The notes beneath the pieces are model-generated. The model searched no databases, was not told where the DNA came from, and worked only from the letters and a program-made list of their open reading frames with translations. Of a stretch of 46,850 nt of DNA, positions 1 through 41,368 are shown one piece after another. The stretch covers positions 1-46,850 of the forward strand of contig CBFCYS010000001.1 of assembly GCA_965602215.1 (NCBI GenBank), written 5' to 3'. Position numbers and translations under genes: made by a program. Position 1 is the first letter of the stretch; every line of letters starts with the position of its first letter. This stretch comes from an uncultured bacterium. GTDB lineage: Bacteria; RBG-13-66-14; B26-G2; WVWN01.

Positions 1-1028
1 GTAAACGTCGCCGCCGCCAGCGCGTGGTTGGTGCAAATATTCGACGTCGCTTTTTCGCGGCGTATGTGCTGCTCGCGCGTTTGCAGCGTCAGGACGTACC
101 CGGGCTTACCTTCCGCGTCCGTCGTCTTGCCTACGAGGCGGCCGGGCATCTGGCGCAAAAACTCGCGGCGGGTGGCGAAGAATCCCACGCCCGGGCCGCC
201 GAAGGACGGGGCTATGCCGAAGCTCTGCCCCTCCCCCACGACGACGTCGGCGCCGAACTTGCCGGGAGGCGACAGCGTCGCCAACGCCAGCGGTTCGGTT
301 ACGGCCACGACGAGGAGCGCCCCCTCGCGATGGCAAATCTCGGCGACGTCCGCGAGCCTCGTTTCCACCAACCCGAAGAAGTTCGGATACTGCATTACGA
401 AACACCCGGCGTCGCCCAGCGAGCCGCTAAGGCGGTTGAGGTCCACCGTGCCGCCCGGCTCGTACGGCGCGCAACAGGGCAGCGTCGCGGCCTCGACGCC
501 CGGGATGTTGGTCAGATACGTTTCGACGACGCGCCGGTACTCCGGGTGCAGGTTGGGGGCCATAACCACCCGCGACCTTTCCTTCTTGAGCCGCAGGCAC
601 ATGAGCGCCGCCTCCGCGGCCGCGGTCGCGCCGTCGTACATCGACGCGTTCGCGACCTCCATCCCGGCGAGGGCCGCGACGTACGTCTGGAATTCGAATA
701 TTATCGCCAGCGTACCCTGACTTACCTCGGGCTGGTACGGCGTGTAGGCGGTGTAGAACTGACTCTGGCCTACGAGGTGTCGCACCGCCGCCGGGACGAA
801 GTGGTCGTAGCAGCCGGCGCCGAGGAACGAGAGGCGGTCGGTGCGGTTCGAGCCGGCGAGCTCCGCCATATGGCGTACGAGCGCCGGCTCGGCCAAAGGT
901 TGCGGCAAATCGAAGTCGACCCGCAGGAGCTCGTCGGGCAACGGCTCGAAGAGGTCGTCGACGGCGCCGACGCCGATTTCTCCGAGCATCTTTTCAACTG
1001 TTTCGTCGTCGTGGGGAACGTACGGCAT
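1..1028 (-). CDS. gcvPA: Glycine dehydrogenase (decarboxylating) subunit 1 (GcvPA), C-terminus beyond window edge
   Basis: Absent from the ORF track because it runs off the edge. My minus-strand translation from ATG 1028..1026 (GGAGGAAG upstream) reads MPYVPHDDETVEKMLGEIGV...LSFLGAGCYDHFVPAAV...YTPYQPEVSQGTL...ANASMYDGATAAAEA...REKATSNICTN. This matches P-protein subunit 1 and follows gcvT-gcvH on the same strand. Confidence 0.85.
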   Translation of the reverse strand, partial: MPYVPHDDETVEKMLGEIGVGAVDDLFEPLPDELLRVDFDLPQPLAEPALVRHMAELAGSNRTDRLSFLGAGCYDHFVPAAVRHLVGQSQFYTAYTPYQPEVSQGTLAIIFEFQTYVAALAGMEVANASMYDGATAAAEAALMCLRLKKERSRVVMAPNLHPEYRRVVETYLTNIPGVEAATLPCCAPYEPGGTVDLNRLSGSLGDAGCFVMQYPNFFGLVETRLADVAEICHREGALLVVAVTEPLALATLSPPGKFGADVVVGEGQSFGIAPSFGGPGVGFFATRREFLRQMPGRLVGKTTDAEGKPGYVLTLQTREQHIRREKATSNICTNHALAAATF

Positions 1029-1061
1029 TAAGGTCTTCCTCCAAAGAGCATTTTAACCGTT

Positions 1062-3984: not shown

Positions 3985-4641
3985 CTAGGCGCCCGCGAAG
4001 AAAGGGTTGTGCTTTCGCTCCTCGCCCACCGTCGTCGGCGGCCCGTGGCCGGCGAACACGTCCGTCTTCGCCGGCAGCGTTAGGATCTTCGTTTTGATCG
4101 AGGATATCAACGTCCGCTCGTCGCCGCCGCACAGGTCCGTCCGGCCAATGGAACCGGCGAAGAGCGCGTCGCCGCTGAACACCAGGCCGTCGCCTACCAG
4201 CGAGATGCCTCCCGCAGTATGCCCCGGCGTATTTACCACCTTCAAGCCGACTTCCGCGACCTCGTCCCCCTCCCGCAACAGGACGTCCGCCGCCGGGGAT
4301 ACGGCGTAGCACTCCTGGAACATCGCCACGGCCTCCAGGCCGATAATAAGCGCGTCCTGGCGATGGAGGGCCTCGGCGCCCGGGCCGAGGTAGGGCGCGT
4401 CCCCCTCTCCTATATATATAGGTACGCCCAATAACTCCTTTAACGCGCCGTTGCCGCCGGTGTGGTCGAGGTGGCCGTGGGTATTTATTATCGCGACGGC
4501 CTCCAGCTCGAGCGCGCGGAGGTGGCCGGCGATTTCGTCGGCGTCCGAAGCCGGGTCTACGACGACGGCGCGTTTCCCGTCGTACGAGAAGATGTAGCAA
4601 TTGGTGCCGACCGGCCCGAGTTGAAGCGTTTCAATAAGCAC
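3985..4641 (-). CDS. MBL-fold metallo-hydrolase (glyoxalase II-like)
   Basis: 218 aa. It has the metal motif THGHLDHTGG, then NTPGHTAGG and a later GD..F. GTG start. Confidence 0.85.
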   Translation of the reverse strand: MLIETLQLGPVGTNCYIFSYDGKRAVVVDPASDADEIAGHLRALELEAVAIINTHGHLDHTGGNGALKELLGVPIYIGEGDAPYLGPGAEALHRQDALIIGLEAVAMFQECYAVSPAADVLLREGDEVAEVGLKVVNTPGHTAGGISLVGDGLVFSGDALFAGSIGRTDLCGGDERTLISSIKTKILTLPAKTDVFAGHGPPTTVGEERKHNPFFAGA

Positions 4642-4647
4642 GGTCGG

Positions 4648-4676
4648 ATATTAATATTGCCGGACAGGGTTGTCAA
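4648..4676 (-). promoter_or_regulatory. Candidate promoter placing the TSS at the MBL GTG start (leaderless candidate)
   Basis: Minus strand TTGACA(4676..4671)-17 nt-TAATAT(4653..4648). Only 6 nt (ccgacc) separate the -10 from GTG 4641 and no SD is possible. Confidence 0.4.
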
Positions 4677-4742
4677 GGCAAGTGGTATCGTCGAGCTCCA
4701 CAGGAGTGGGTTAGCCCAGCCCCGCGGAAAACCAAATAGAAA

Positions 4743-4762
4743 GGCGCGCCCGGCGGCGCGCC
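4743..4762. terminator. Strong GC hairpin (bidirectional terminator candidate) downstream of the O-methyltransferase operon
   Basis: GGCGCGCC-cggc-GGCGCGCC gives an 8-bp perfect stem. It is flanked by A/T runs on both sides (minus strand: ...TTTCTATTTGGTTTT) and lies 40 nt past stop 4803. Confidence 0.6.
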
Positions 4763-4802
4763 CTTTATTATACGAGAACTATTCCGGCGGCGCGGGGAGT
4801 AT

Positions 4803-5405
4803 CTACCCTATATCCACCTTGACCGTCCACGACAGGCCGTTGCCTATCTCGAGCACCGTCGTCGCCGCGGCCGGCAAACGGCGCAGCCACTCCAGGAAAG
4901 GATTTATCACGTCGGCGTGCGAGAGGACGTTGTCGGCCACCAGCGACGCGCCGGCCGCGAGCCGGGGCCATAACAACTCGCCGTACGCCACGTACTCGTC
5001 CTTCTCGCCGTCGACGAAGGCGAGGTCGAACGGTTCGTCGAGCGTCGCGAGCGTATCGCGCGCGTCGCCCTTTATTATCTCGACGAGGTCGGCGACGCCG
5101 GCCGATTCTATATGTTCGTTCGCCACGTCTATTATGTCGGGGTTTTTCTCCAACGTTACGAGGGAGCCCCCCGTCTCCGCGCACGCCCGCGCCAACCACA
5201 ACGTCGAGTAACCCGCGCTGGTGCCCACTTCCACCGTACGCCGCGCGCGCGTCGCCAGCCCCAGCAGGAAAATGAACTCCGCCGAGTGGGGGTGGAGCGC
5301 CCGGAAGCGCTGCCGGGGCGGCAGCCCCGCGCGCCGCTGGCGCCCGTCCTCCAGCCGGACCGCGGCCTCGACCAACCGCCACGCCTCCAAGTCGAAATTC
5401 GACAT
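4803..5405 (-). CDS. Class I SAM-dependent O-methyltransferase (family 3 / caffeoyl-CoA OMT-like)
   Basis: 200 aa. It has the SAM-binding motif VEVGTSAGYSTLWLA, followed by LVTLE...D and AFVDGEK. Confidence 0.8.
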   Translation of the reverse strand: MSNFDLEAWRLVEAAVRLEDGRQRRAGLPPRQRFRALHPHSAEFIFLLGLATRARRTVEVGTSAGYSTLWLARACAETGGSLVTLEKNPDIIDVANEHIESAGVADLVEIIKGDARDTLATLDEPFDLAFVDGEKDEYVAYGELLWPRLAAGASLVADNVLSHADVINPFLEWLRRLPAAATTVLEIGNGLSWTVKVDIG

Positions 5406-5407
5406 GG

Positions 5408-5818
5408 TTACTCCTCTACTTTAGCATCTACGCCGTAAAGGTCCCGCGCCGGGTCGAACTCGAGGTCGAAGCCGAGCGTCATGTCCCACGTCGAGCTGGG
5501 CATATCCCACGTAAGGACCTCCTCGCGTATCGCCTCGGCAAAAGCCGGGTCGCCTATGGTGTCGCTTTCGATCTCGACCGCGGTCACCGTACCGTCCGCG
5601 GCTATCGTCAGGTTAGGATGGAGCGTCCCCGCCGGGCCGTCGGCGCCGAAGTGCGATAGGTATATCTCCTTCAGCCGCGGTTGCTTCTGCGCCAGGAGGA
5701 CCGCGAGCTCCACCGTCCACGAAAGGGCGCCGGTCAAAGCGTCCCAAAAGCCGGCGGCGGCGGGGGCGACGACGGCCGCTAGCAACAATACCGTTAGAAG
5801 CACTCTCGCTCTAGCCAT
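5408..5818 (-). CDS. Small secreted protein with a TonB C-terminal-like domain
   Basis: I trimmed track ORF 5408..6019 to the internal ATG 5818, giving MARARVLLTVLLLAAVVAPAAAG (signal peptide). The ATG overlaps the upstream stop as TAATG. The C-terminal part, LTIAADGTVTAVEIESDTIGDPAFAEAIREEVLTWDMP, resembles TonB_C. Confidence 0.5.
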   Translation of the reverse strand: MARARVLLTVLLLAAVVAPAAAGFWDALTGALSWTVELAVLLAQKQPRLKEIYLSHFGADGPAGTLHPNLTIAADGTVTAVEIESDTIGDPAFAEAIREEVLTWDMPSSTWDMTLGFDLEFDPARDLYGVDAKVEE

Positions 5819-6471
5819 TAGGAAGCCTTTCTGCCGCGTAGCGCGAAATGCGGGTGCGGGTAACCACGGGTTAAATCGAACGTCTCCACTTCCAGGCCCG
5901 CCCGTTCCATCGCGACGCGGTAATCGTCGCCCGCGCGCAGGAATATCCCGGCGCCCTCCGTCAGGCCCAGGACGCGCACCGCGAGCCACTCCTGAAAGTA
6001 ACACCAACGCCGTTTCCAAACCGGCCGGTCCGTCATCTCTTTAATTATAAGGTACCCGCCCGGGCGCAGCCTGGCCGCCGCGAGGAGGATAAGCTCGTCC
6101 CGGCGGCCCGGCGGCAGAAGGTACAACATGTCCACAACGGCGACCGCATCGAACGGGCCCCGGCTCTCCACGTACGCGTACGCGTCGTCGAGTACGAACG
6201 CTACGCCCTCCCGGCCGGCGGCGGTTTTGACGGCCGCGTTAACCTTTCTCTCGTCAGCGTCCACGCCGACGACGTCGAGGCCGGGCCGGCGCGCCTTCAG
6301 GACATTCACGAAGACGCCGGCGGAACAACCAAGTTCGACGACACTCACGACGTCCGGCGGCACGAGCGCGGCTACCTTCTCGAGCGGCGCCGTCGCGTAA
6401 CGGATTCGCGCGTAAAGGCGGTCGCGTAAAGAAAGGCCGGCGTAGAGAGGTGCGATATCCGCGTACGGCAT
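5818..6471 (-). CDS. Class I SAM-dependent methyltransferase
   Basis: 217 aa. Motif I is VVELGCSAGVF, then VGVDADE, and motif post-II is LRPGGYLIIKE. Confidence 0.75.
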   Translation of the reverse strand: MPYADIAPLYAGLSLRDRLYARIRYATAPLEKVAALVPPDVVSVVELGCSAGVFVNVLKARRPGLDVVGVDADERKVNAAVKTAAGREGVAFVLDDAYAYVESRGPFDAVAVVDMLYLLPPGRRDELILLAAARLRPGGYLIIKEMTDRPVWKRRWCYFQEWLAVRVLGLTEGAGIFLRAGDDYRVAMERAGLEVETFDLTRGYPHPHFALRGRKAS

Positions 6472-6530
6472 CTTCTACCGGGCCCTCCCGACCCCCTCCC
6501 GATAACATACCGTCGGGCCGGGTGTCAATA

Positions 6531-6556
6531 AATAAAAAGGGCCGGCGGACCGGCCC
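6531..6556 (-). terminator. Rho-independent terminator of the Sec-candidate gene
   Basis: Minus strand GGGCCGG-tccg-CCGGCCC followed by TTTTTATTTATT, 18 nt after stop 6574. Confidence 0.65.
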
Positions 6557-6573
6557 CACGGGGGAAATCGTCG

Positions 6574-7464
6574 TTAATGGAAAGTTGCTCTAACCTTCCC
6601 GAAAGACGTCGGCTCAACCGTTACCGTACCGGTATTAAAATGCCACTCGTACGTCGGCATGACGTTATTAAACAAGTCCTTACCGTCCACCTTAACCGTA
6701 ACTCGAGTTTCGGCAGGTAGGGGACTAGTGGGGTCGAATTCTAACCGGAAGTCGAGGAAATTTCCCGTAAGGGTTAATTTTCCGGAAACGGCCGCGTCAT
6801 CGGGCACCGTGACCGCCATCTTTACCGAAGCGCGGTCGACGCCCGAACCGTCCTCCTTCAGGTTCACGGCTATGTTCGTGTTAACGTTGACGCCCGTCGC
6901 GTTGGGAGTAGGGCTTGGGCTGTGGCAATAAGGCGCCTTGGTATCGCCGTTTATGGTGCGCCGGAGCGCCTTGACGATCTCGGCCTCGTTGAAGCTGTAA
7001 GCCTCCATCCAGTAGATCTTGCCGGTGGTGCCGACGACCGAGGTCTGACTGTACCAACTGTTTATCCGCCAATTGTAGAAGTCGGTCGTTTCGGCGTCGA
7101 GGAAGTCTTGCGGCAAGGTGCGGCCGTAGTGCAAATACTTGTAACGGTATTGCGTGTAAGCGTCGTCATAACCGTTGTAAGATATAACCTCTACGCCGGC
7201 ACCCTCGTTATGGTGCTTGTTGTACAGGCTTTCGAGCTGACCCAGCTCGACGATGCACGGACCTCAAGAGGCTTTCCAGTGGACGACTACGACGCCTTTG
7301 CCGTGGTAAGAATTAATATTTAACCAAGGGCCGTGATAGGTGGGCGGAACGTTGTTGATGGTATAGTTGGCCAACGCCGGATGGTCGTCGCCGACCTGGA
7401 GAGGGATCGCGCCGCCGGCCGTCAGCGCCAACGCCGCGGCCGTAAAAAACAACTTCCTGCCCAT
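6574..7464 (-). CDS. Secreted thioredoxin-fold (TlpA/ResA-like) thiol:disulfide oxidoreductase with an in-frame UGA (candidate selenocysteine, U-G-P-C), a C-terminal Ig-like (SbsA/Big_5-like) domain and a conserved tail
   Basis: Track ORFs 7264..7641(-) and 6574..7134(-) share one frame and are separated only by TGA 7266..7264. Read-through gives ...YHGKGVVVVHWKAS-U-GPCIVELGQLESLYNKHHNEGAGVEVISYN.... The real start is ATG 7464 (GGAGGT upstream, signal peptide MGRKLFFTAAALALTAGGA). 296 codons. Confidence 0.6.
7233..7249 (-). promoter_or_regulatory. Candidate bacterial SECIS hairpin
   Basis: RNA sense: UGA-14 nt-CGAGCUG-GGU-CAGCUCG. This is a perfect 7-bp stem with G/U in the apical loop, and the loop is about 24 nt from the U of UGA. 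Confidence 0.45.
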
Positions 7465-7501
7465 ATAGATACCTCCAGTTTTAGCGACTGTTCCTATAAA
7501 C

Positions 7502-7530
7502 AATTTAGCCGAGAATTCGCCGCCCGTCAA
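7502..7530 (-). promoter_or_regulatory. Candidate promoter of the Sec-candidate gene
   Basis: Minus strand TTGACG(7530..7525)-17 nt-TAAATT(7507..7502), about 38 nt upstream of ATG 7464. Confidence 0.4.
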
Positions 7531-7553
7531 GGGAAAATAATCAACTACGTTAT

Positions 7554-7573
7554 ATATGCGTCGGATATGCGTC
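7554..7573. repeat. Tandem direct repeat ATATGCGTC-gg-ATATGCGTC (11-nt period)
   Basis: Exact 9-nt repeat at 7554..7562 and 7565..7573, located 24-48 nt upstream of the candidate -35 of the Sec-candidate gene. Confidence 0.3.
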
Positions 7574-7609
7574 AAAAAAAACCTACGGCCTGGGCGGCGG
7601 TAAACCGAA

Positions 7610-8362
7610 TTAATCCGGAACGCGGGCCTCGGGTTCCTCATCGGCGATGGGCGGCCCGACGCGCCACGTCCCGAACAATTTTTTTAACCGTCGGACGAAT
7701 AAAAACAGGAAATTCCTCGAGCCGTCGCGCCACAGCGAAAGCTTGGATTCGCCCCGCCGCTTGACGTAGTGGAAATGGACCGGGACCTCGCGCGCGTGGA
7801 GGAGGCGGCGGTTTTCAAACACCTCCAGTTTCAATTCCTCCGAGAACGGCATACCGTCCGACGTAACGTTTACGCGCTCGAGTACGTCGCGTTTAAAACA
7901 CCACATCCCGGATTGCGAGTCCCGGACCCGGAACCAGTACAGGAGTGCGATCGTGAGGTTGAAGACGCGGTTGCCGAGGAAGCGTAGAATATAATCTAAG
8001 TTCTCTTGCCAATCGGCGGCGATGCGCCAGGCGCTGATAAAATCCAACTCGTCGGCGACGAGGATGTCGATAAGATAAGGTATGGCGTTAACGGGGTAAG
8101 TCGCGTCGCCGTCCAACGTGCAGATAACGTCGCCCGTGGCCTGCGACAGGCCGGACTTGTACGCCCGGCCGTAACCCGGGCGCGCCTCGAAGACAACCTT
8201 GGCGCCCCCCTCCCGGGCGACTACGCCGGTCCGGTCGCTCGAGTTATTGTCCACCACGATGACCTCGTCGACGAAGGAGGGCATTTGCCGCAAACATTCC
8301 TCGACGCCCTCTTCTTCGTTGTAGCAGGGCATCACGACCGATATTTTTAAACCGTGGCGCAT
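7610..8362 (-). CDS. Glycosyltransferase family 2 (polyprenol-phosphate sugar synthase-like)
   Basis: 250 aa. ISVVMPCYNEEEGV...VIVVDNNSSDRT...LDGDATYP is the GT-A DxD architecture. Confidence 0.85.
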   Translation of the reverse strand: MRHGLKISVVMPCYNEEEGVEECLRQMPSFVDEVIVVDNNSSDRTGVVAREGGAKVVFEARPGYGRAYKSGLSQATGDVICTLDGDATYPVNAIPYLIDILVADELDFISAWRIAADWQENLDYILRFLGNRVFNLTIALLYWFRVRDSQSGMWCFKRDVLERVNVTSDGMPFSEELKLEVFENRRLLHAREVPVHFHYVKRRGESKLSLWRDGSRNFLFLFVRRLKKLFGTWRVGPPIADEEPEARVPD

Positions 8363-8380: not shown

Positions 8381-9382
8381 TCAATATCTTCTTCGTAGCA
8401 AGAAATAACTCGCCGTTCCCCACGCCCCGCCGGCAAAACTGAAAGCGAGCTCGAGCGGAAGAAACGCCAACGCGCCTAACACCATAGATACGCCGCGACG
8501 CGCCAGGAACGCCAGCCACCGGAAGTTCAAAGCGTAGACGGCGACGAGCGTCGCCGCCGCGCCCGGCGCGGCCCACTCCCAGGCGAACGGCGCCAGCGCC
8601 GCCCACAACAAAAAGAGCATCGGCGCCGGCAACGATAATATAAACGACGTCGGCACGGACGTACGGTTGCCTCCCGCGCCGCGGCGCCTTCCCATCCGCA
8701 ATATGCACCGCGTCAACGCCGCGCCCCGCCGGAACGCGGTCAGGAGCGCGCCTAAGGTACTATATACCTTCCGGTGCTCGACTTCGACGTCCTTGTCCAA
8801 TAAAATCCGGACGCCGCGCGCGGCCAACGTTCGCCCGAAGGCGGTATCCTCCACCGACGGCCTCTTATAACCTTCGTCCATCCCGCCGGCCGCCAGGAAT
8901 ACGTCTTTCTTGATCGACGCGCAGCTGGTATAGAAAAGGTCCACCCACGCCGGCAGCTGCAGATACGTGAAACGCATCCAGAGGTTTTTGTATTTGCTGG
9001 CGAAATCCGGCAGCGCCGGCAGCTCGGCCTCCACCCCCAGGACGGCGTCGACGCCGTCGCCGTACGAGGCCGCGACGTCCTCGAATATACCGACCGGGAC
9101 GAAGACGTCGGCGTCTACGAAGAGGAGGACGTCGTTGCGGGCGGCGCGCGCGCCGGCGTTGCGGGCCGCGGCGGGGCCCGGGCCGCCGTCGTTCGGTACG
9201 ACGCGGAGCTTGGCGTTCTCCGGCAAAGCCGCCAGCGAGCCGTCGGTCACGCGGTCGTCGACGACGACCACCTCGCCGGGAGGCGGCTCGGCCGCAAGCG
9301 CCGTCCGTACGGCCGCCGCCGCCAACGGCGCGCCGTTCCCCACCGGCATAACCACGGATATATCGGAAGCTCGGTACGTCAT
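8381..9382 (-). CDS. Glycosyltransferase family 2 with C-terminal membrane segments
   Basis: 333 aa. ISVVMPVGNG...VVVVDDRVTDGS...LLFVDADV, followed by a hydrophobic C-terminal third. Confidence 0.8.
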   Translation of the reverse strand: MTYRASDISVVMPVGNGAPLAAAAVRTALAAEPPPGEVVVVDDRVTDGSLAALPENAKLRVVPNDGGPGPAAARNAGARAARNDVLLFVDADVFVPVGIFEDVAASYGDGVDAVLGVEAELPALPDFASKYKNLWMRFTYLQLPAWVDLFYTSCASIKKDVFLAAGGMDEGYKRPSVEDTAFGRTLAARGVRILLDKDVEVEHRKVYSTLGALLTAFRRGAALTRCILRMGRRRGAGGNRTSVPTSFILSLPAPMLFLLWAALAPFAWEWAAPGAAATLVAVYALNFRWLAFLARRGVSMVLGALAFLPLELAFSFAGGAWGTASYFLLRRRY

Positions 9383-11023: not shown

Positions 11024-12137
11024 ATGGAAGATATAAGCGAGCTCGAGCAAAGGCTGGACAGGCTTTCTCATACGGTGGACGACGTCCGGGACGGTCTTTG
11101 ACCCGGAAAAAATCGCCAACCGCATCGTCGACCTCGAGGAGAAGGCCGCCGCGCCGGACCTCTGGGGAAACCACGACCAGGCCCAAAAGCTGCTGGCCGA
11201 GCTAAGTCGCCTTAAAAAACGGGCCGAAGCGTTCGCCGCCGCCGAAAAAAAACTCGAGGACCTGGGCGTCTTTTACCAGCTCTGCCTCGAAGAACAGGCG
11301 GCCTGCGCCGACTTCGGCAGCGAACTCTCGACGCTGGAAGAAGAGGTCGAGCGCCTCTCGCTATTGACTTTCCTGGGGGGCCGTTACGACGGTTCCGACG
11401 CCATAGTCGAGGTTAAACCCGGCGCCGGTGGCGTGGACGCCGCCGATTGGGCCGAGATGCTCTTTCGGATGTACCTCAAGTGGTCCGAAGCGCGCGGCTA
11501 CCGATGCGACGTCCTGGCGGCCGAAGCGGCGGAGGAGGCCGGCGTACGATTCGCCGTATTCGAAGTGCACGGCGACTACGCGTACGGCAACCTGAGCTGC
11601 GAGGCGGGCGTACACCGCCTGGTCCGGATATCGCCCTTCGACCAAAAGAGTCGGCGCCATACGTCGTTCGCCAACGTAGCCGTATGGCCCAAACTCGACG
11701 AGACGGTGGAAGTCGAGATCGACGAGGGCAACCTTAAAATAGATACCTTCCGTTCGTCGGGGCCCGGCGGCCAGCACGTGAACGTTACGGACTCGGCGGT
11801 GCGCATCACCCACCTCCCCACCGGCATCGTCGTGTGCTGCCAGGCCGAGCGCTCGCAGCATCTAAACCGACTTCGGGCGCTGGCGGTACTACGTTCGAAA
11901 TTGCACAAGTTAAAAGAGGACGAACACCGCGCCCGCGTCGAGGACCTTAAAGGGCCCAAGCACGATATCGCGTGGGGGAACCAGATACGCTCGTACGTCC
12001 TCTTCCCGTACCAGCTGGTCAAAGACCTGCGGACGGGGCACGAAACGAACAACGTCGACCGCGTCCTCGACGGCGGCCTTGACGAGTTGATCGCCGCCGC
12101 CCTGAAGTGGCGCGGTACGAAGGGGGGCCGGGAATGA
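11024..12137 (+). CDS. prfB: Peptide chain release factor 2, requires a programmed +1 frameshift
   Basis: Frame 0 reads MEDISELEQRLDRLSHTVDDVRDGL and then TGA (11099..11101). The +1 frame from 11100 continues DPEKIANRIVDLEEKAAAPDLWGNHDQAQ... into track ORF 11364..12137. The RF2-specific SPF motif (RISPFD) and GGQ (SGPGGQHVN) are both present. Confidence 0.9.
11096..11102 (+). promoter_or_regulatory. RF2 autoregulatory +1 frameshift site CTT TGA C
   Basis: The exact canonical slippery/stop heptamer CUU UGA C lies at codon 26, with a G-rich SD-like stretch (cgggacgg) just upstream. Confidence 0.85.
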
Positions 12138-17893: not shown

Positions 17894-18862
17894 ATGAAAT
17901 ATATTTATTTTATAGCGACGGCGCTCGCGTCGGCGCTGCCTACGACCACGGCGGCGACGTACTTGTACGAAGGGGAATGGGGCCGGTTGGGCACGGGCCA
18001 CGGCGCGTTCGTGGAAGTATCCGGCGTCGCCGTAGCGCCCAACGGGAACGTCTACGTATCCGACCCGAGCAATAACTGCATCCAATACTTTACGGCCTCC
18101 GGCAGCTTCCTCGGCGTGTGGGGGACGGCCGGAACCGACCCCGGCCGGTTCAACAGGCCTTTCGGCGTGGCGGTAGCGCCTAAAGGACGGGTATACGTCG
18201 TCGATACGGACAACAACCGCGTCCAGTACTTCACCGCCGCCGGCAGCTACCTCGGGAAGTGGGGCCGAGCAGGGTCGGGGCCGGGAGAGTTCGACAACCC
18301 TCTCGGCGTCGCGGTCGCGCGCAGCGGGAACGTCTTTGTCGCCGACGCCGGGAACGACCGCATACAACGATTCGCCCCCAACGGCCGCTACCTCGGGAAG
18401 TGGGGCCGCAGCGGCAACGGGAACGGCGAGCTGAACTTCCCCGCCGACGTCGCGCTCGCGCCGGACGGCCGCGCGTACGTGGCGGACGCCCGCAACGCCC
18501 GGGTCCAATACTTCACCGGGTTCGGAACGTTCCTGGGCAAGTGGGGCGCGTGGGGTTACGGCGAAGGGCAATTCTTCTACCCGAAGGCCTTAGCGGTTTC
18601 GGGCGACGACCGGGTATTCGTAACGGAGGATTTCAACCATCGCGTTCAGTGTTTTACGACCGGCGGCAGTTTTATCGGGATATGGGGCTCGCTCGGAAGG
18701 GGCGAAGGAGAATTCAACGAACCCCGCGGCGTAGCGACGTTCAACGACGGTAAACGGGTATACGTCGCCGACCGGTGGAACGACCGCGTACAATATTTCC
18801 GGCGCGTGGAATCCGGCGTCGAGCCGTGCTCGCTCGGGCGGGTAAAAGCGCTTTTCGAATAG
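17894..18862 (+). CDS. Secreted six-bladed NHL-repeat beta-propeller protein 1
   Basis: A signal peptide is followed by six units of about 47 aa of the type G.G.G.F..P.GVAV.P.G.VYVAD..N.R(I/V)QYF...G.(F/Y)LG.WG. The C-terminal tail is VEPCSLGRVKALFE. Confidence 0.85.
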   Translation: MKYIYFIATALASALPTTTAATYLYEGEWGRLGTGHGAFVEVSGVAVAPNGNVYVSDPSNNCIQYFTASGSFLGVWGTAGTDPGRFNRPFGVAVAPKGRVYVVDTDNNRVQYFTAAGSYLGKWGRAGSGPGEFDNPLGVAVARSGNVFVADAGNDRIQRFAPNGRYLGKWGRSGNGNGELNFPADVALAPDGRAYVADARNARVQYFTGFGTFLGKWGAWGYGEGQFFYPKALAVSGDDRVFVTEDFNHRVQCFTTGGSFIGIWGSLGRGEGEFNEPRGVATFNDGKRVYVADRWNDRVQYFRRVESGVEPCSLGRVKALFE

Positions 18863-18956: not shown

Positions 18957-19934
18957 ATGAAAAGGACAATCACGACGGCGGCCTTGTTGCTACTGGCCGC
19001 GACGGCGGCTTTCGCCGAGTTCGCGTACGAAGGACAATGGGGAAAACAGGGCTCGAAAGAAGGCCAGTTCGACCACCCGTGGGACGTCGCCGTAGCCGGC
19101 GGCGGCCGCGTCTTCGTCGTCGACCGCCACAACCACCGCATCCAGTACTTCGCCGCCACCGGGAGCTACCGCGGTACGTGGGGTTCGTACGGTACCGCCG
19201 CGGGCAAGTTCCGCTTCCCCTCCGGGGTCGTCGCGTCCGCGAACGGCGTATACGTCGGCGACTCGCTAAACCATCGCGTCCAGCGTTTCACCACCGGGGG
19301 AAGTTTCCGAAACGCCTGGGGCGAACGCGGTACGGGAGAAGGAGAATTCGATAGGCCCCTCGGCGTAGCCACGGCGCCCAACGGCAACGTTTACGTCGTC
19401 GACTCCGGCAACTACCGCATCCAATACTTCTCGCCGGCGGGAAGCTTCGTCGGCAGTTGGGGCGCGCAGGGCAGCGGCGAGGGCCAATTCGAAGCCCCCC
19501 GGGGAATAGCCGTAGGGCAAAACGGCAACGTCTACGTCGCGGACGCCGAGAACCATCGCGTCCAGCGTTTTTCCTCCAACGGCAGCTTCTTGAAGTCGTG
19601 GGGCACGCGGGGAAGCGGCGAAGGCCAATTCAACACCCCGTACGGCGTCGCCGTCGGCCCGGACGGCAACGTGTACGTCGCCGATTGCGACAACCACCGC
19701 ATCCAGTATTTCAATCCGGCGGGGAGCTTCGTCGGCAGGTGGGGTTCGTTCGGGACGGGCGACGGCCAGCTCAACTACGCCCGGGGCGTAGCCGCGACGG
19801 CGTGGAGCGGCGATACGTCGACCGTACGCGTCTACGTTGCGGATACCAACAACAACCGGGTTCAGTATTTCAAAGACCTCCAGCCTGCGGTAGAGCCGAC
19901 GTCGTTGGGACGGGTAAAGGGACTTTTTAAATAG
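18957..19934 (+). CDS. Secreted NHL-repeat beta-propeller protein 2
   Basis: Signal MKRTITTAALLLLAATAAFA, then six NHL units. The tail is VEPTSLGRVKGLFK. Confidence 0.85.
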   Translation: MKRTITTAALLLLAATAAFAEFAYEGQWGKQGSKEGQFDHPWDVAVAGGGRVFVVDRHNHRIQYFAATGSYRGTWGSYGTAAGKFRFPSGVVASANGVYVGDSLNHRVQRFTTGGSFRNAWGERGTGEGEFDRPLGVATAPNGNVYVVDSGNYRIQYFSPAGSFVGSWGAQGSGEGQFEAPRGIAVGQNGNVYVADAENHRVQRFSSNGSFLKSWGTRGSGEGQFNTPYGVAVGPDGNVYVADCDNHRIQYFNPAGSFVGRWGSFGTGDGQLNYARGVAATAWSGDTSTVRVYVADTNNNRVQYFKDLQPAVEPTSLGRVKGLFK

Positions 19935-20031: not shown

Positions 20032-20997
20032 ATGAAACGAGTATCCATATCAGCCGCGCTCTTGATCTGTATGGCCGCGGCCGCCTCCGCCGAATTCAAG
20101 TACGCGGGCCAGTGGGGCTCGTCCGGCGCCGCGGCCAGCGAATTCAACGCGCCGACGGGAATAGCCGTCGCGCCCAACGGCAACGTGTACGTCGCGGACG
20201 CGTTTAACCATCGCATCCAATACTTTACCGCCACCGGCAGCTTCCTCGGCCGATGGGGCTCGCGCGGTTCCGACAAAGGCCAGTTCATCTACCCCTCGGA
20301 CGTGGCGGTGGCTCCCAACGGCAACGTCTACGTCGCCGACTTCGACAACAACCGAATCCAATACTTCAAACCGAACGGCGCGTACCTGGGCCAGTGGGGC
20401 GAGTACGGCGTACTGCCGCGGTTCTTCAATAAACCGCACGGCGTGTCGGTGTCGCGCAGCGGCAACGTCTACGTCGCCGACACGTTCAACAATCGCGTGC
20501 AGTATTTCACGCGAGCCGGCAGCTTCCTGGGCTCCTGGGGTACCAAAGGCGCAATCGACGGCGAATTCCAACAACCGATCTGCGTCGCCGTAGCACCCCA
20601 CGGCAACGTCTACGTAGCGGACCAACTCAACGACCGGGTGCAATACTTCGACGCCAAAGGCATCTTCCTCGGTAAATGGGGCACGAACGGTTTCGGCTGG
20701 GGCCAATTCCAGTACCCCTCGGCCATAGCAGCCGGCTCCGATTACCGCATCTACGTCACCGATTACTCCTGGCACCACGTCCAATACTTCACCGCGTCCG
20801 GCAGCTACCTCGGCAAATGGGGCAGCCGGGGAGAAGGCGACGGCGAATTCAACTTCCCCGACGGCGTCGCCATCTCGCCCGCCGGCACGAAAGCATACGT
20901 CGCCGATACCGGCAACAACCGCATCCAATACTTCAAGCGCGTCGAGCCCGCCGTCGCGCCCTCCTCGCTGGGGCGCGTGAAAGCGCTGTTTAAGTAA
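20032..20997 (+). CDS. Secreted NHL-repeat beta-propeller protein 3
   Basis: Signal MKRVSISAALLICMAAAASA, then six NHL units. The tail is VAPSSLGRVKALFK. Confidence 0.85.
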   Translation: MKRVSISAALLICMAAAASAEFKYAGQWGSSGAAASEFNAPTGIAVAPNGNVYVADAFNHRIQYFTATGSFLGRWGSRGSDKGQFIYPSDVAVAPNGNVYVADFDNNRIQYFKPNGAYLGQWGEYGVLPRFFNKPHGVSVSRSGNVYVADTFNNRVQYFTRAGSFLGSWGTKGAIDGEFQQPICVAVAPHGNVYVADQLNDRVQYFDAKGIFLGKWGTNGFGWGQFQYPSAIAAGSDYRIYVTDYSWHHVQYFTASGSYLGKWGSRGEGDGEFNFPDGVAISPAGTKAYVADTGNNRIQYFKRVEPAVAPSSLGRVKALFK

Positions 20998-38996: not shown

Positions 38997-39098
38997 GGAA
39001 AACGTCAAGAAACGTAATTTAAACTCAGGCCATAACGCCTTTTATATATGACCCACGCGCCGGCGACCCCTTAAGTGGCCGTACGCGAGGTGAGGTTT

Positions 39099-39599
39099 AT
39101 GCCTGGTATGGAACTCGTCCTATTCGAAGAAGATTACACAAGCCTTAACGAGATATTGGCTACGCTCGTCCGCGAAACCAATTCCAAGTTCGCGCTGTTG
39201 GTGGACCGCTCGGGGCAGCTGGTCTCCAGCCAGGGCGACACCGAGAATATGGACTCGTTGTCCTTCGCGTCGCTCTCGGCGGGCAACTACGCCGCGACCA
39301 GCGAGCTCTCGAAAATCCTGGGCCAGGAGGAGTTCTCAGTACTCTTCCACCAGGGCACCAGCGAATCGATACATCTATCCATAGTAGCCAAACGCGTTAT
39401 CCTGGTCGTGGTCTTCGATAACAAGACTACGTTAGGGTTGGTTCGGCTTCGAGTTAAAAAGGCGGTAGAAGAACTCTCGGGTATATTTAACCGCATCTTC
39501 CAAAAAGTCGCGGAACGCGGCATCGAAGCGCCTTCGCCGCTGGGCGAAACCTTCTCGAGCGTCGCCGAAAGCGAGATAGACAACCTCTTCAAAGATTAA
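39099..39599 (+). CDS. mglB: Roadblock/LC7-domain GTPase-activating protein MglB
   Basis: MELVLFEEDYTSLNEILATLVRETNSKFALLVDRSGQLVSSQGDT...LVVVFDNKTTLGLVRLRVKKAVEELSGIF closely parallels Myxococcus MglB (…VVFLVDKNGQLISSAGQT…LVVIFDNRTSLGLVRLRIKKASDEL). The start could be 39075, 39099 or 39108. Confidence 0.85.
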   Translation: MPGMELVLFEEDYTSLNEILATLVRETNSKFALLVDRSGQLVSSQGDTENMDSLSFASLSAGNYAATSELSKILGQEEFSVLFHQGTSESIHLSIVAKRVILVVVFDNKTTLGLVRLRVKKAVEELSGIFNRIFQKVAERGIEAPSPLGETFSSVAESEIDNLFKD

Positions 39600-39630
39600 A
39601 AGGTCCTTACCCGCGGCCGGGGGTTCGGCT

Positions 39631-40224
39631 ATGTCCCTAATCAACTATTCCTCTCGCGAAATAAACTGCAAGATCGTTTATTACGGTTGCGGTCTTTGCG
39701 GCAAAACGACCAATCTCCTGTACATCCACGAGAAACTCCCCCACGACATCAAGGGGAAGATGGTCTCGTTGGCCACCGATACCGACCGGACCCTCTTCTT
39801 CGACTTCTTACCCCTCGAGCTGGGAACGGTGAACGGCTTCAAAACGCGCTTCCACCTTTATACCGTACCCGGCCAGGTCCACTACGACGCCTCCCGCAAA
39901 CTAATACTGAAGGGCGTGGACGGTATCGTCTTCGTCGTGGACTCCCAGCGCAACCGCTTCGACGAAAACATAGAATCGTTCGAGAATATGATAAAGAACC
40001 TCCAGCTCCAAGGGTACCGGTTGGATAGCATCCCTTATATATTCCAATACAACAAGCGCGATTTGCCTAACTGCTCGCCGGTGGAACAGCTCGAGGCCGC
40101 GCTCAATAAAGACCAGGTACCGTGCTTCGAATCGATCGCCACTACCGGCATCGGCGTATTCGATTCCCTGCGCGCGATCTCGAAGCTCGTTATTGCGCAT
40201 CTCTCGCGCCAAACGGCCCGTTAA
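39631..40224 (+). CDS. mglA: Ras-like small GTPase MglA
   Basis: MSLINYSSREINCKIVYYGCGLCGKTTNL...TDRTLFFDFLPLELG...GFKTRFHLYTVPGQVHYDASRKLILKGVDGIVFV.DSQ...QYNKRDLP is nearly collinear with M. xanthus MglA. The P-loop reads GCGLCGKT where Myxococcus has GPGLCGKT. Confidence 0.92.
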   Translation: MSLINYSSREINCKIVYYGCGLCGKTTNLLYIHEKLPHDIKGKMVSLATDTDRTLFFDFLPLELGTVNGFKTRFHLYTVPGQVHYDASRKLILKGVDGIVFVVDSQRNRFDENIESFENMIKNLQLQGYRLDSIPYIFQYNKRDLPNCSPVEQLEAALNKDQVPCFESIATTGIGVFDSLRAISKLVIAHLSRQTAR

Positions 40225-40303
40225 TTAGAAACTCGCTAGAATCCCGGCGGCGGGCGGCGGTGCCCGGGTACTGTCGTGAGCCGCCGTTTTGCAAGTCCTC
40301 GCT

Positions 40304-41368
40304 ATGGGCTTAGACGGCAATTTAGAAGACTTCCCGCTCGCCGACGTGCTGCAGCTCATAAACATGGGTTCGCGCACCGGCTTACTCGTCATATCCAAAA
40401 ATAATTCCTCGGCCCGCATATGGTTCGAACAGGGCCAGGCCGTACACGCCGAAGTCGGCGAATTGGACGGCGAAAAGGCCGTCTACGAAACCTTCAATTG
40501 GCGGGAGGGGCGTTTTACCTTCGAGACCGACTCTAAGACCGACCTAAGGACGATCGAGCTAGATTGCCAGAACTTGATTATGGAGGCGGTCCGCCGACTC
40601 GACGAATGGACCAAATTACGGAAGATAATCCCAAACTCCGGCTACGTCGTCGCCTTCGCCGCCGGCCCCGGCGACAAGGCCGGCAACATTACGCTCCAGG
40701 CCCACGAGTGGAAAGTACTATCCCTGGTCAACAGCGGCCTTAGCGTCTCCGCCCTCGCCGAGAAGACGGGTTTCTCGGAACTTAAAACCACGCAAATCAT
40801 CCACTCTCTTATAGACTCGGGCCTGCTCGAAGTCCACGCGCCCAACAGCAAACCGGCTCCCCCCTCCGAAGAACAGGCGCGCGTAAAAAGCCTGCGCGAG
40901 TTTCTCAAGGGCGTCGAACAACCCGGCTCGCGCGGCTGGCGCGAAGCCGCGGGTCCCGGCGCTAAAACCAACGTCGGCGTATTGGCCCTATTCATCAACT
41001 CGCTGCTCGATAACTTCGACAAACCCAACGGCCTGTACAACGCCGTGAAACAGGACAAACCGTTGCGCGAGCGGATATCCGAGCAAGCAGAACGCTATCC
41101 CCAAGTGGAGATAATCAAACTCGACGACGACCGCGTCGACGTAGGCCGACTGGACGAAGAAATCGAAGCCCTCGACGATCTGGGCAAGAAGAACCTCATC
41201 GTCGCGCTCGCCGAAGTCAAAGAACAAATAATGACGACCGCCGAGAAACAAACCAACAAGATAGCCGCGGCGCGGCGCCACAACAAAGTGTTGGAGTATG
41301 TCTTCGGCCCCAACGGCACGCCCCAGAACATAGGCCTGGGCAGCATCCTTGAAAAGGAAGCCCCCTAG
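40304..41368 (+). CDS. DUF4388 (PATAN) domain protein with a central winged-helix-like segment
   Basis: I trimmed to ATG 40304. GNLEDFPLADVLQLINMGSRTGLLVI....ARIWFEQGQAVHA..G.L.GEKAVYETFNWREGRFTFE is the DUF4388 signature. EWKVLSLVNSGLSVSALAEKTGFSELKTTQIIHSLIDSGLLEV looks wHTH-like. Confidence 0.7.
   Translation: MGLDGNLEDFPLADVLQLINMGSRTGLLVISKNNSSARIWFEQGQAVHAEVGELDGEKAVYETFNWREGRFTFETDSKTDLRTIELDCQNLIMEAVRRLDEWTKLRKIIPNSGYVVAFAAGPGDKAGNITLQAHEWKVLSLVNSGLSVSALAEKTGFSELKTTQIIHSLIDSGLLEVHAPNSKPAPPSEEQARVKSLREFLKGVEQPGSRGWREAAGPGAKTNVGVLALFINSLLDNFDKPNGLYNAVKQDKPLRERISEQAERYPQVEIIKLDDDRVDVGRLDEEIEALDDLGKKNLIVALAEVKEQIMTTAEKQTNKIAAARRHNKVLEYVFGPNGTPQNIGLGSILEKEAP

Follow-up and report, generated by a model that had tools for sequence, protein, structure and literature searches.

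A conserved in-frame UGA codon at the active-site cysteine position of a predicted exported TlpA-like protein is very probably read as selenocysteine

Does a single in-frame UGA codon in the DNA of an uncultured bacterium end one gene, spoil another, or encode selenocysteine (Sec) in the active site of a redox protein? The question is raised by two open reading frames (ORFs), 7264..7641(-) and 6574..7134(-), that share a frame in the ORF listing of a 46,850-nucleotide stretch of contig CBFCYS010000001.1 (assembly GCA_965602215.1; the whole stretch is termed the window herein). A first-pass annotation, made from the sequence alone, had proposed that both are parts of one gene for a secreted thioredoxin-fold selenoprotein, interrupted only by TGA 7266..7264. 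Frame and translation agree with this proposal: 7464..6574(-) reads as 296 sense codons, counting its single internal stop, followed by a terminal TAA (6576..6574), and the only internal stop is TGA 7266..7264(-), which is flanked as GKGVVVVHWKAS-TGA-GPCIVELGQLESLYNKHH. The stretch between the two ORFs (7135..7263, 129 nt), described earlier as sensible protein, encodes a conserved part of the product. We conclude that 7464..6574(-) is very probably one gene for an exported, TlpA-like selenoprotein whose UGA is read as Sec with the help of SelB and a selenocysteine insertion sequence (SECIS), and that the protein most likely works outside the cytoplasm, in the periplasm or at the surface, as a thiol-disulfide oxidoreductase.

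The UGA codon is conserved well beyond the window. A protein search with the joined window protein (U replaced by C) found 24 clusters, 2 of which are named by organism and come from Zixibacteria metagenome-assembled genomes (MAGs). Almost all of the cluster proteins are N-terminally truncated at varying internal codons (165 to 228 amino acids), and one is full length. We compared 15 close loci, of which L001 to L006 come from GTDB genomes and L007 to L015 from metagenomes. Fourteen of the 15 orthologues, which derive from independent MAGs and metagenomes and share 54 to 97% identity, have TGA at this position of the alignment, and two more assemblies of the window's own population keep it as well (1 and 29 mismatches over 891 nt). 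The first-pass annotation had left it to an orthologue alignment whether Cys or UGA occupies this column: it is UGA, not Cys, and there is no decay, with the protein conserved on both sides of the codon and free of further stops or frameshifts in the close orthologues.

The pattern extends to distant homologues. A phmmer search against 1.84 billion representatives was dominated by proteins with multiple Big_5 domains; it still yielded distant homologues, and four such genes, including a tandem pair, all carry TGA at the same column (by tblastn, about 33 to 37% identical to the C-terminal part of the window protein). The four motifs read U-G-Y-C, C-U-G-G-G, U-G-A-C, and U-P-Y-C. The program MAFFT misplaced the 66-amino-acid N-terminal fragments created by gene callers, and alignments containing those fragments were left out. 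In 20 sequences, neither the frame nor the spacing changes across the UGA. Of the 19 homologous genes from other MAGs and metagenomes in the comparison, 18 have UGA and none has Cys; a Cys form at this column was likewise found neither among the 24 clusters of the protein search nor, at full length, among the top 150 phmmer matches. Because the same column holds TGA across orthologues, assemblies, and distant homologues, the codon is not a product of damage or error.

The sole close orthologue lacking the TGA is L004 (protein P0001, 74% identity), where TCC GGC CAG TCC (contig JASFLY010000004.1, 10133..10144) encodes Ser-Gly-Gln-Ser in place of U-G-Q-C, with loss of both redox residues. Otherwise conserved, L004 looks like a redox-dead copy, and it lies in a different genomic context. 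The tandem pair mentioned above (L017, 2740..3993 and 4177..5436; also present in L018) consists of paralogues that both have an in-frame TGA: one copy reads U-G-Y-C and the other C-U-G-G-G, with the partner Cys shifted to position -1, and both copies contain an extra domain of about 100 amino acids ahead of the C-terminal tag described below.

The conserved UGA lies in the active site of a thioredoxin-fold domain. In the profile alignment, its column coincides with the first Cys of the CxxC motif of ResA, of Protein Data Bank (PDB) entry 2m72, and of other TlpA-like chains, which bears out the earlier placement of the UGA at the nucleophilic Cys. The motif U-G-[PQ]-C follows a VVVVHW strand. 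In the window protein the residues directly N-terminal of the TGA are VVVVHWKAS, and the active-site context proposed in the first pass is right as regards TGA followed by GPC; the full motif is W-x-x-x-U-G-P-C (HWKAS-U-GPC) rather than W-x-x-C-G-P-C.

Hidden Markov model searches with the domain alone (U replaced by C) placed it above the Pfam cut-offs of both Redoxin (PF08534; 27.9 versus 26.6) and AhpC-TSA (PF00578; 26.6 versus 26), two of the families to which the first-pass annotation had pointed; with the full-length protein, both scores fall just under the gathering thresholds. Among 13 members of the family, 11 matched AhpC-TSA and 9 matched Redoxin. The only NCBIfam matches at an E value of ≤0.01 were ResA, StoA, and TlpA, and these were weak: the equivalog scores (31.1 versus a cut-off of 170, 17.9 versus 210, and 16.2 versus 230 bits) are so far below the cut-offs that the protein is related to these equivalogs and not a member of them. 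Glutathione peroxidase (PF00255) was rejected on score (13.1 versus 27 bits) and on motif, which is UxxC and not UxxT. None of the curated selenoprotein-specific NCBIfam families (NF04xxxx, listed in PMC13188914) was matched. Against the PDB, a profile built from the 13 members found 2m72 at an E value of 1e-8 and also ResA and DipZ.

For structure prediction, the Ser-variant orthologue P0001 served as a stand-in for the window protein. In its AlphaFold2 model, the elements of the redox domain follow the order β-α-β-α-β-β-α, which is that of thioredoxin, and position 67 lies shortly ahead of a helix (residues 69 to 87). Foldseek matched the model to ResA at TM scores of 0.62 to 0.64.

Downstream of the UGA, inside the coding sequence and overlapping the codons for E-L-G-Q-L-E, is a hairpin with the geometry of a bacterial SECIS (bSECIS) element. 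A 13-nt spacer (7263..7251) separates the UGA from a stem of 8 bp closed by a 3-nt GGU loop, and the distance from UGA to loop is 21 nt. Folded alone, the hairpin has an energy of -11.8 kcal/mol (centroid), or -12.6 kcal/mol with two extra outer pairs. The published bSECIS model calls for a loop of 3 to 9 nt with G at position 1 or 2, a stem of 4 to 16 bp, a UGA-to-loop distance of 16 to 37 nt, and a minimum free energy of ≤-7.5 kcal/mol (PMC13188914, Fig. 2); the window hairpin lies within every one of these limits.

Several patterns of sequence conservation are evidence of selection on this hairpin. The stem is unchanged in 11 of 12 TGA carriers, with L011 opening just the loop-closing pair. 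Synonymous sites are nearly frozen from codon -1 to codon +10, where the codon alignment shows TCT, GAG, and CTC in 13 of 13 sequences each and CTG in 12 of 13. Normalized synonymous entropy in the 12-codon window that starts at codon -1 is 0.16, compared with a median of 0.54, and is the lowest of 255 such windows; the eight lowest-entropy windows all overlap the hairpin region. A mid-stem mismatch (G to A) occurs solely in L004, and because the loss of the UGA and the mismatch occur together, this exception fits the proposed role of the hairpin. In the distant homologues, the equivalent position is taken by hairpins that differ in sequence; their loops are GUA, GAU, AGAAA, and AGAUG, all with G in position 1 or 2.

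Elsewhere in the window, UGA is an ordinary stop codon. Seven other likely genes end in TGA. In six of these, the sequence past the stop does not look coding. Downstream of the seventh (8381..9382(-)), a separate gene, 7610..8362(-), opens in the same frame; read-through from one into the other was considered and rejected, the two being complete GT2 genes that each have their own start and lie a TGA plus 18 nt apart. The window also encodes RF2, the release factor for UGA (prfB, 11024..12137(+); TIGR00020, 393.7 bits versus a cut-off of 370), and its gene contains, past codon 25, the canonical programmed +1 frameshift site, CTT TGA C, at 11096..11102. In the ORF listing, prfB is represented by its downstream portion alone.

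Several observations weigh against Sec insertion. No selA, selB, selD, or tRNA-Sec gene was found in the window, in about 10 kb past its left end (where gcvP, lplA, and BMC-related genes are located), or in the fetched loci, and ARAGORN detected no tRNA-Sec in the window and 14 loci; the contigs found for the right end break off at about the same point as the window. A literature search on Zixibacteria together with selenocysteine or selenoproteins, uninformative on this point, returned nothing relevant. The folding energy of the hairpin is unexceptional compared with shuffled sequences (z of -1.2 for the window and -0.4 to -2.6 for other TGA carriers), and with z-scores this weak, stability alone was not counted as evidence. 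The close orthologues show no covariation, their stem being invariant, and two of the distant hairpins do not stand out from background. An Rfam scan of 6400..7700 (E value of ≤10) gave no SECIS family and returned only sR34, ncS54, epsC, and tfoR at chance level; this result is uninformative because a hairpin this short gives a covariance model little to score. In the redox domain, the column that holds the cis-Pro in 2m72 is Ser (S139) in the window protein and in all close orthologues; among the distant homologues it is Pro in three and Gly in one. The confidence of the AlphaFold2 model in this domain is moderate only: the predicted local distance difference test (pLDDT) score was below 50 in a first model and 50 to 74 in a second, for which distant homologues were added.

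The lack of Sec machinery in the sequences examined and the unremarkable stability of the hairpin are also what would favor the rival that survives best, namely, that the UGA is read through as a residue other than Sec. For example, a near-cognate or suppressor tRNA, or a tRNA-Sec-like molecule charged with Cys, could supply Cys or Trp at this codon, and the result would be an ordinary CxxC or WxxC protein. We consider this improbable. In position and loop, the hairpin is what would be expected of a SECIS bound by SelB, and synonymous variation in it is frozen; the window encodes RF2, complete with UGA-dependent autoregulation; and the UGA persists down to about 33 to 37% identity although one base change, to UGC or UGU, would suffice to make it a Cys codon.

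Less probable again is that the UGA terminates translation, leaving a 66-residue exported peptide and perhaps a separate C-terminal protein, or that the full-length product is made rarely and under selenium regulation. Gene callers do predict two genes here in all assemblies, and since competition between RF2 and SelB at such a UGA is normal, some truncated product is to be expected. Termination would, however, break a single thioredoxin fold inside its active-site motif, between strand β1 and helix α1; the downstream part has neither a signal peptide nor a conserved start, with callers choosing the differing codons noted above; and the invariant frame and spacing across the UGA speak for one continuous protein.

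There is a negligible chance that a nonsense mutation has turned the locus into a pseudogene or that the TGA arose in sequencing or assembly: a single in-frame stop would resemble a fresh mutation if only one sequence had been seen, but the same TGA recurs in independent assemblies and lineages down to about 33% identity, with conserved amino acids on both sides and no additional lesions. An alternative code in which UGA means Trp or Gly (translation tables 4 and 25) is equally remote, having nothing but the in-frame TGA itself to commend it, while RF2 is encoded in the window with a UGA frameshift site, the seven other genes ending in TGA show no genuine coding read-through, the window has a G+C content of 62%, and related families have Cys, not Trp or Gly, at the homologous position.

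Under the preferred Sec reading, UGA 7266..7264 would be decoded as selenocysteine during translation, with the hairpin in the coding sequence acting as a bacterial SECIS that, against competition from RF2, brings SelB-GTP-Sec-tRNA(Sec) to the ribosome. The predicted product of 296 amino acids would carry a Sec-type (secretory) signal peptide, a TlpA/ResA-like domain, a Big_5 domain, and a 12-residue tag that other exported proteins of the organism also bear. Sec would be the attacking residue of U-G-P-C, cycling between the selenol/thiol and selenenylsulfide states, and the immunoglobulin (Ig)-like domain and the tag may position the protein in the envelope. We infer SelB dependence, selenium incorporation, and export from sequence, and with them the existence of a substrate and a redox partner.

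The remaining parts of the protein and the flanking signals are collected in Table 1. The start codon with its ribosome-binding site, the signal peptide, the promoter, and the terminator that the first-pass annotation had named are all recognizable, in the case of the promoter on weak evidence and in that of the signal peptide as a signal-peptide-like N terminus in all homologues; sequence conservation begins right after this segment, at [IV]PL.VGDD. In the P0001 model, the Big_5 domain is predicted with a pLDDT of 84 to 97, and Foldseek matches it to CopC and to the Ig-like domains of LdtMt2.

Table 1 Features of the candidate selenoprotein gene and its flanks (window coordinates)
Feature	Coordinates	Strand	Evidence
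Complete gene, very probably for a selenoprotein; 296 codons including one predicted Sec codon, plus TAA	6574..7464	-	Single frame; full-length in 15 close and 4 distant homologues
In-frame UGA, residue 67, first position of the U-G-P-C redox motif	7264..7266	-	Column conservation; aligns with N-terminal Cys of CxxC
SECIS-like hairpin, UCGAGCUG-GGU-CAGCUCGA	7250..7232 (arms 7250..7243 and 7239..7232; loop 7242..7240)	-	Folding, conservation
Thioredoxin-fold (Redoxin/TlpA-like) domain, residues ~25-175	6940..7392	-	Pfam; NCBIfam (weak); PDB profile; AlphaFold2/Foldseek
Signal-peptide-like N terminus, MGRKLFFTAAALALTAGGA	7408..7464	-	Basic n-region, hydrophobic core, and small-residue c-region in all homologues; cleavage site putative
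Big_5 bacterial Ig-like domain, residues 174-278	6631..6945	-	Pfam PF13205, E value 3e-10
12-residue C-terminal tag, PTSFGKVRATFH	6577..6612	-	Conserved in all homologues
ATG start	7464..7462	-	Direct sequence reading
Shine-Dalgarno sequence GGAGGT, 6 nt 5' of ATG	7476..7471	-	Direct sequence reading
Promoter-like TTGACG-17 nt-TAAATT	7530..7502	-	Consensus scan, 9/12 matches; weak (2 sites found versus 0.8 expected)
Intrinsic-terminator-like hairpin, GGGGCCGG-TCCG-CCGGCCCT, then TTTTATTTAT	6557..6528 (hairpin 6557..6538)	-	Scan: 8 pairs, 7 of them G-C, then T-run

The C-terminal tag follows the pattern P-[TA]-S-x-G-x-[IV]-[KR]-A-x-[FY]-x-COOH in all homologues and may serve in sorting or anchoring as a signal of a type yet to be described. 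It matches nothing in NCBIfam or Pfam, and a literature search for a sorting signal of this kind was likewise empty, so that its assignment to a known signal is unsupported. It has no transmembrane segment and is too short for a type IX secretion system C-terminal domain. In a broader form (...P-[TA/C/S]-S-[LF]-G-[RK]-[VI]-K-[AG]-[LT]-F-x-COOH), the tag is found as well at the end of three tandem NHL-repeat proteins of the window (18830..18862(+), 19902..19934(+), and 20965..20997(+)), six tandem ORFs beside the Ser-variant orthologue (L004, 13397..18938(-)), and ORFs of related loci (e.g., L017, 726..758(-) and 5633..5668(-)).

The gene is embedded in a conserved neighborhood with the order GT2, GT2, selenoprotein, methyltransferase, small ORF, O-methyltransferase, MBL hydrolase, aminotransferase, gcvT, and gcvH. 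The 250-amino-acid GT2 gene still adjoins the selenoprotein gene in the distant L017 and L018 loci; its product resembles polyprenyl/dolichyl-phosphate hexose transferases. L004 differs in context and adjoins the six tag-bearing ORFs. The gene has a G+C content of 55.2%, compared with 61.9% for the whole window, and the counts on which the first-pass annotation had based its remark on low G+C are exact (48 in 6601..6700 and 65 in 6301..6400). The further suggestion of an acquired gene is not supported. The upstream GT2 gene belongs to the same low-G+C stretch (0.55 to 0.59), equally low values recur elsewhere in the window at several places, and the gene order conserved in orthologous loci argues against recent acquisition; horizontal acquisition was rejected on this synteny together with the similar G+C content of the upstream stretch.

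Two further observations concern other parts of the window. Positions 39075..41368(+) encode a Roadblock/LC7 protein, a small Arf/MglA-like GTPase, and a PatA_N (DUF4388) protein, which resemble a polarity- or motility-type GTPase module. A long plus-strand ORF at 24..1031 is probably spurious; syntenic loci put gcvP (GDC-P) on the minus strand, off the end of the window.

Thioredoxin-fold proteins with a UxxC motif are the commonest kind of predicted bacterial selenoprotein. They form established predicted families, which include TlpA-like (cd02966) and Prx-like members (PMC13188914), and the gene described here joins this known class of UxxC TlpA-like selenoproteins, leaving current concepts unchanged. 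Compared by features, the window protein shares with the predicted TlpA-like selenoproteins of bacteria the thioredoxin fold, Sec as the first residue of UxxC, a bSECIS-type stem-loop, and the Redoxin/AhpC-TSA matches; it differs in adding the C-terminal Big_5 domain and the 12-residue tag and in having Ser in place of the cis-Pro.

The Cys-type proteins ResA, TlpA, CcmG, and StoA provide the best matches in sequence and structure (4nmu, 1st9, and 1su9) and share the active-site position; they lie outside the cytoplasm, exported or anchored, as the window protein probably does. In contrast to them, the window protein has Sec for Cys, about 14 to 16% identity, and an extra Ig-like domain, and its neighbors are GT2 glycosyltransferases and methyltransferases instead of genes for cytochrome c maturation or sporulation. 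The C terminus of Mycobacterium tuberculosis DipZ (2hyx and 5cyy), found by the profile at an E value of 4e-6 and also by Foldseek, has the same arrangement of a TlpA-like domain followed by a β-sandwich. DipZ, however, is the soluble end of a membrane protein of the DsbD/CcdA type, uses Cys, and has a β-sandwich of a different family, and the domain orientation in the P0001 model does not match that of DipZ (root mean square deviation of about 19 Å). The reference SelB-binding hairpin is the SECIS of Escherichia coli fdhF, a stem-loop that lies within the coding sequence, a short way 3' of the UGA, and has an apical loop of the G-G-U type. The window hairpin is plainer, with a perfect stem of 8 bp, a loop of 3 nt at a distance of 21 nt from the UGA, and no evident bulged U.

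The family has unusual traits: the fusion to a Big_5 domain, the tag, the loss of the cis-Pro, the lack of a detected Cys form, and the CU-type paralogue in a related lineage. It is a tentative and rather unlikely extension of these findings that a lineage-restricted, Sec-only family, with its UxxC (or CU) redox domain held outside the cell on an Ig stalk, a new tag for delivery or anchoring that NHL-propeller proteins share, and functional coupling to the neighboring polyprenyl-phosphate-type GT2 enzymes, would represent a new surface redox and sorting system of Zixibacteria and their relatives.

What the locus means in practice begins with annotation. The first-pass expectation that standard callers would split or truncate the gene is borne out in every assembly examined, with genes for 66 and 186 amino acids predicted in other assemblies. 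The labels given are "hypothetical" and "Ig-like domain-containing", with no trace of the redox domain; once the two parts are joined, the thioredoxin-fold active site is complete again. The gene adds gene-level evidence for Sec decoding of UGA in Zixibacteria-type lineages and would add to the bacterial selenoproteome a predicted exported UxxC protein with an unusual Ig-domain fusion. L004, in which Sec, the resolving Cys, and the hairpin were lost together, is a natural control, and with Sec apparently fixed in this small family, the family is a useful case for asking why Sec is retained over Cys.

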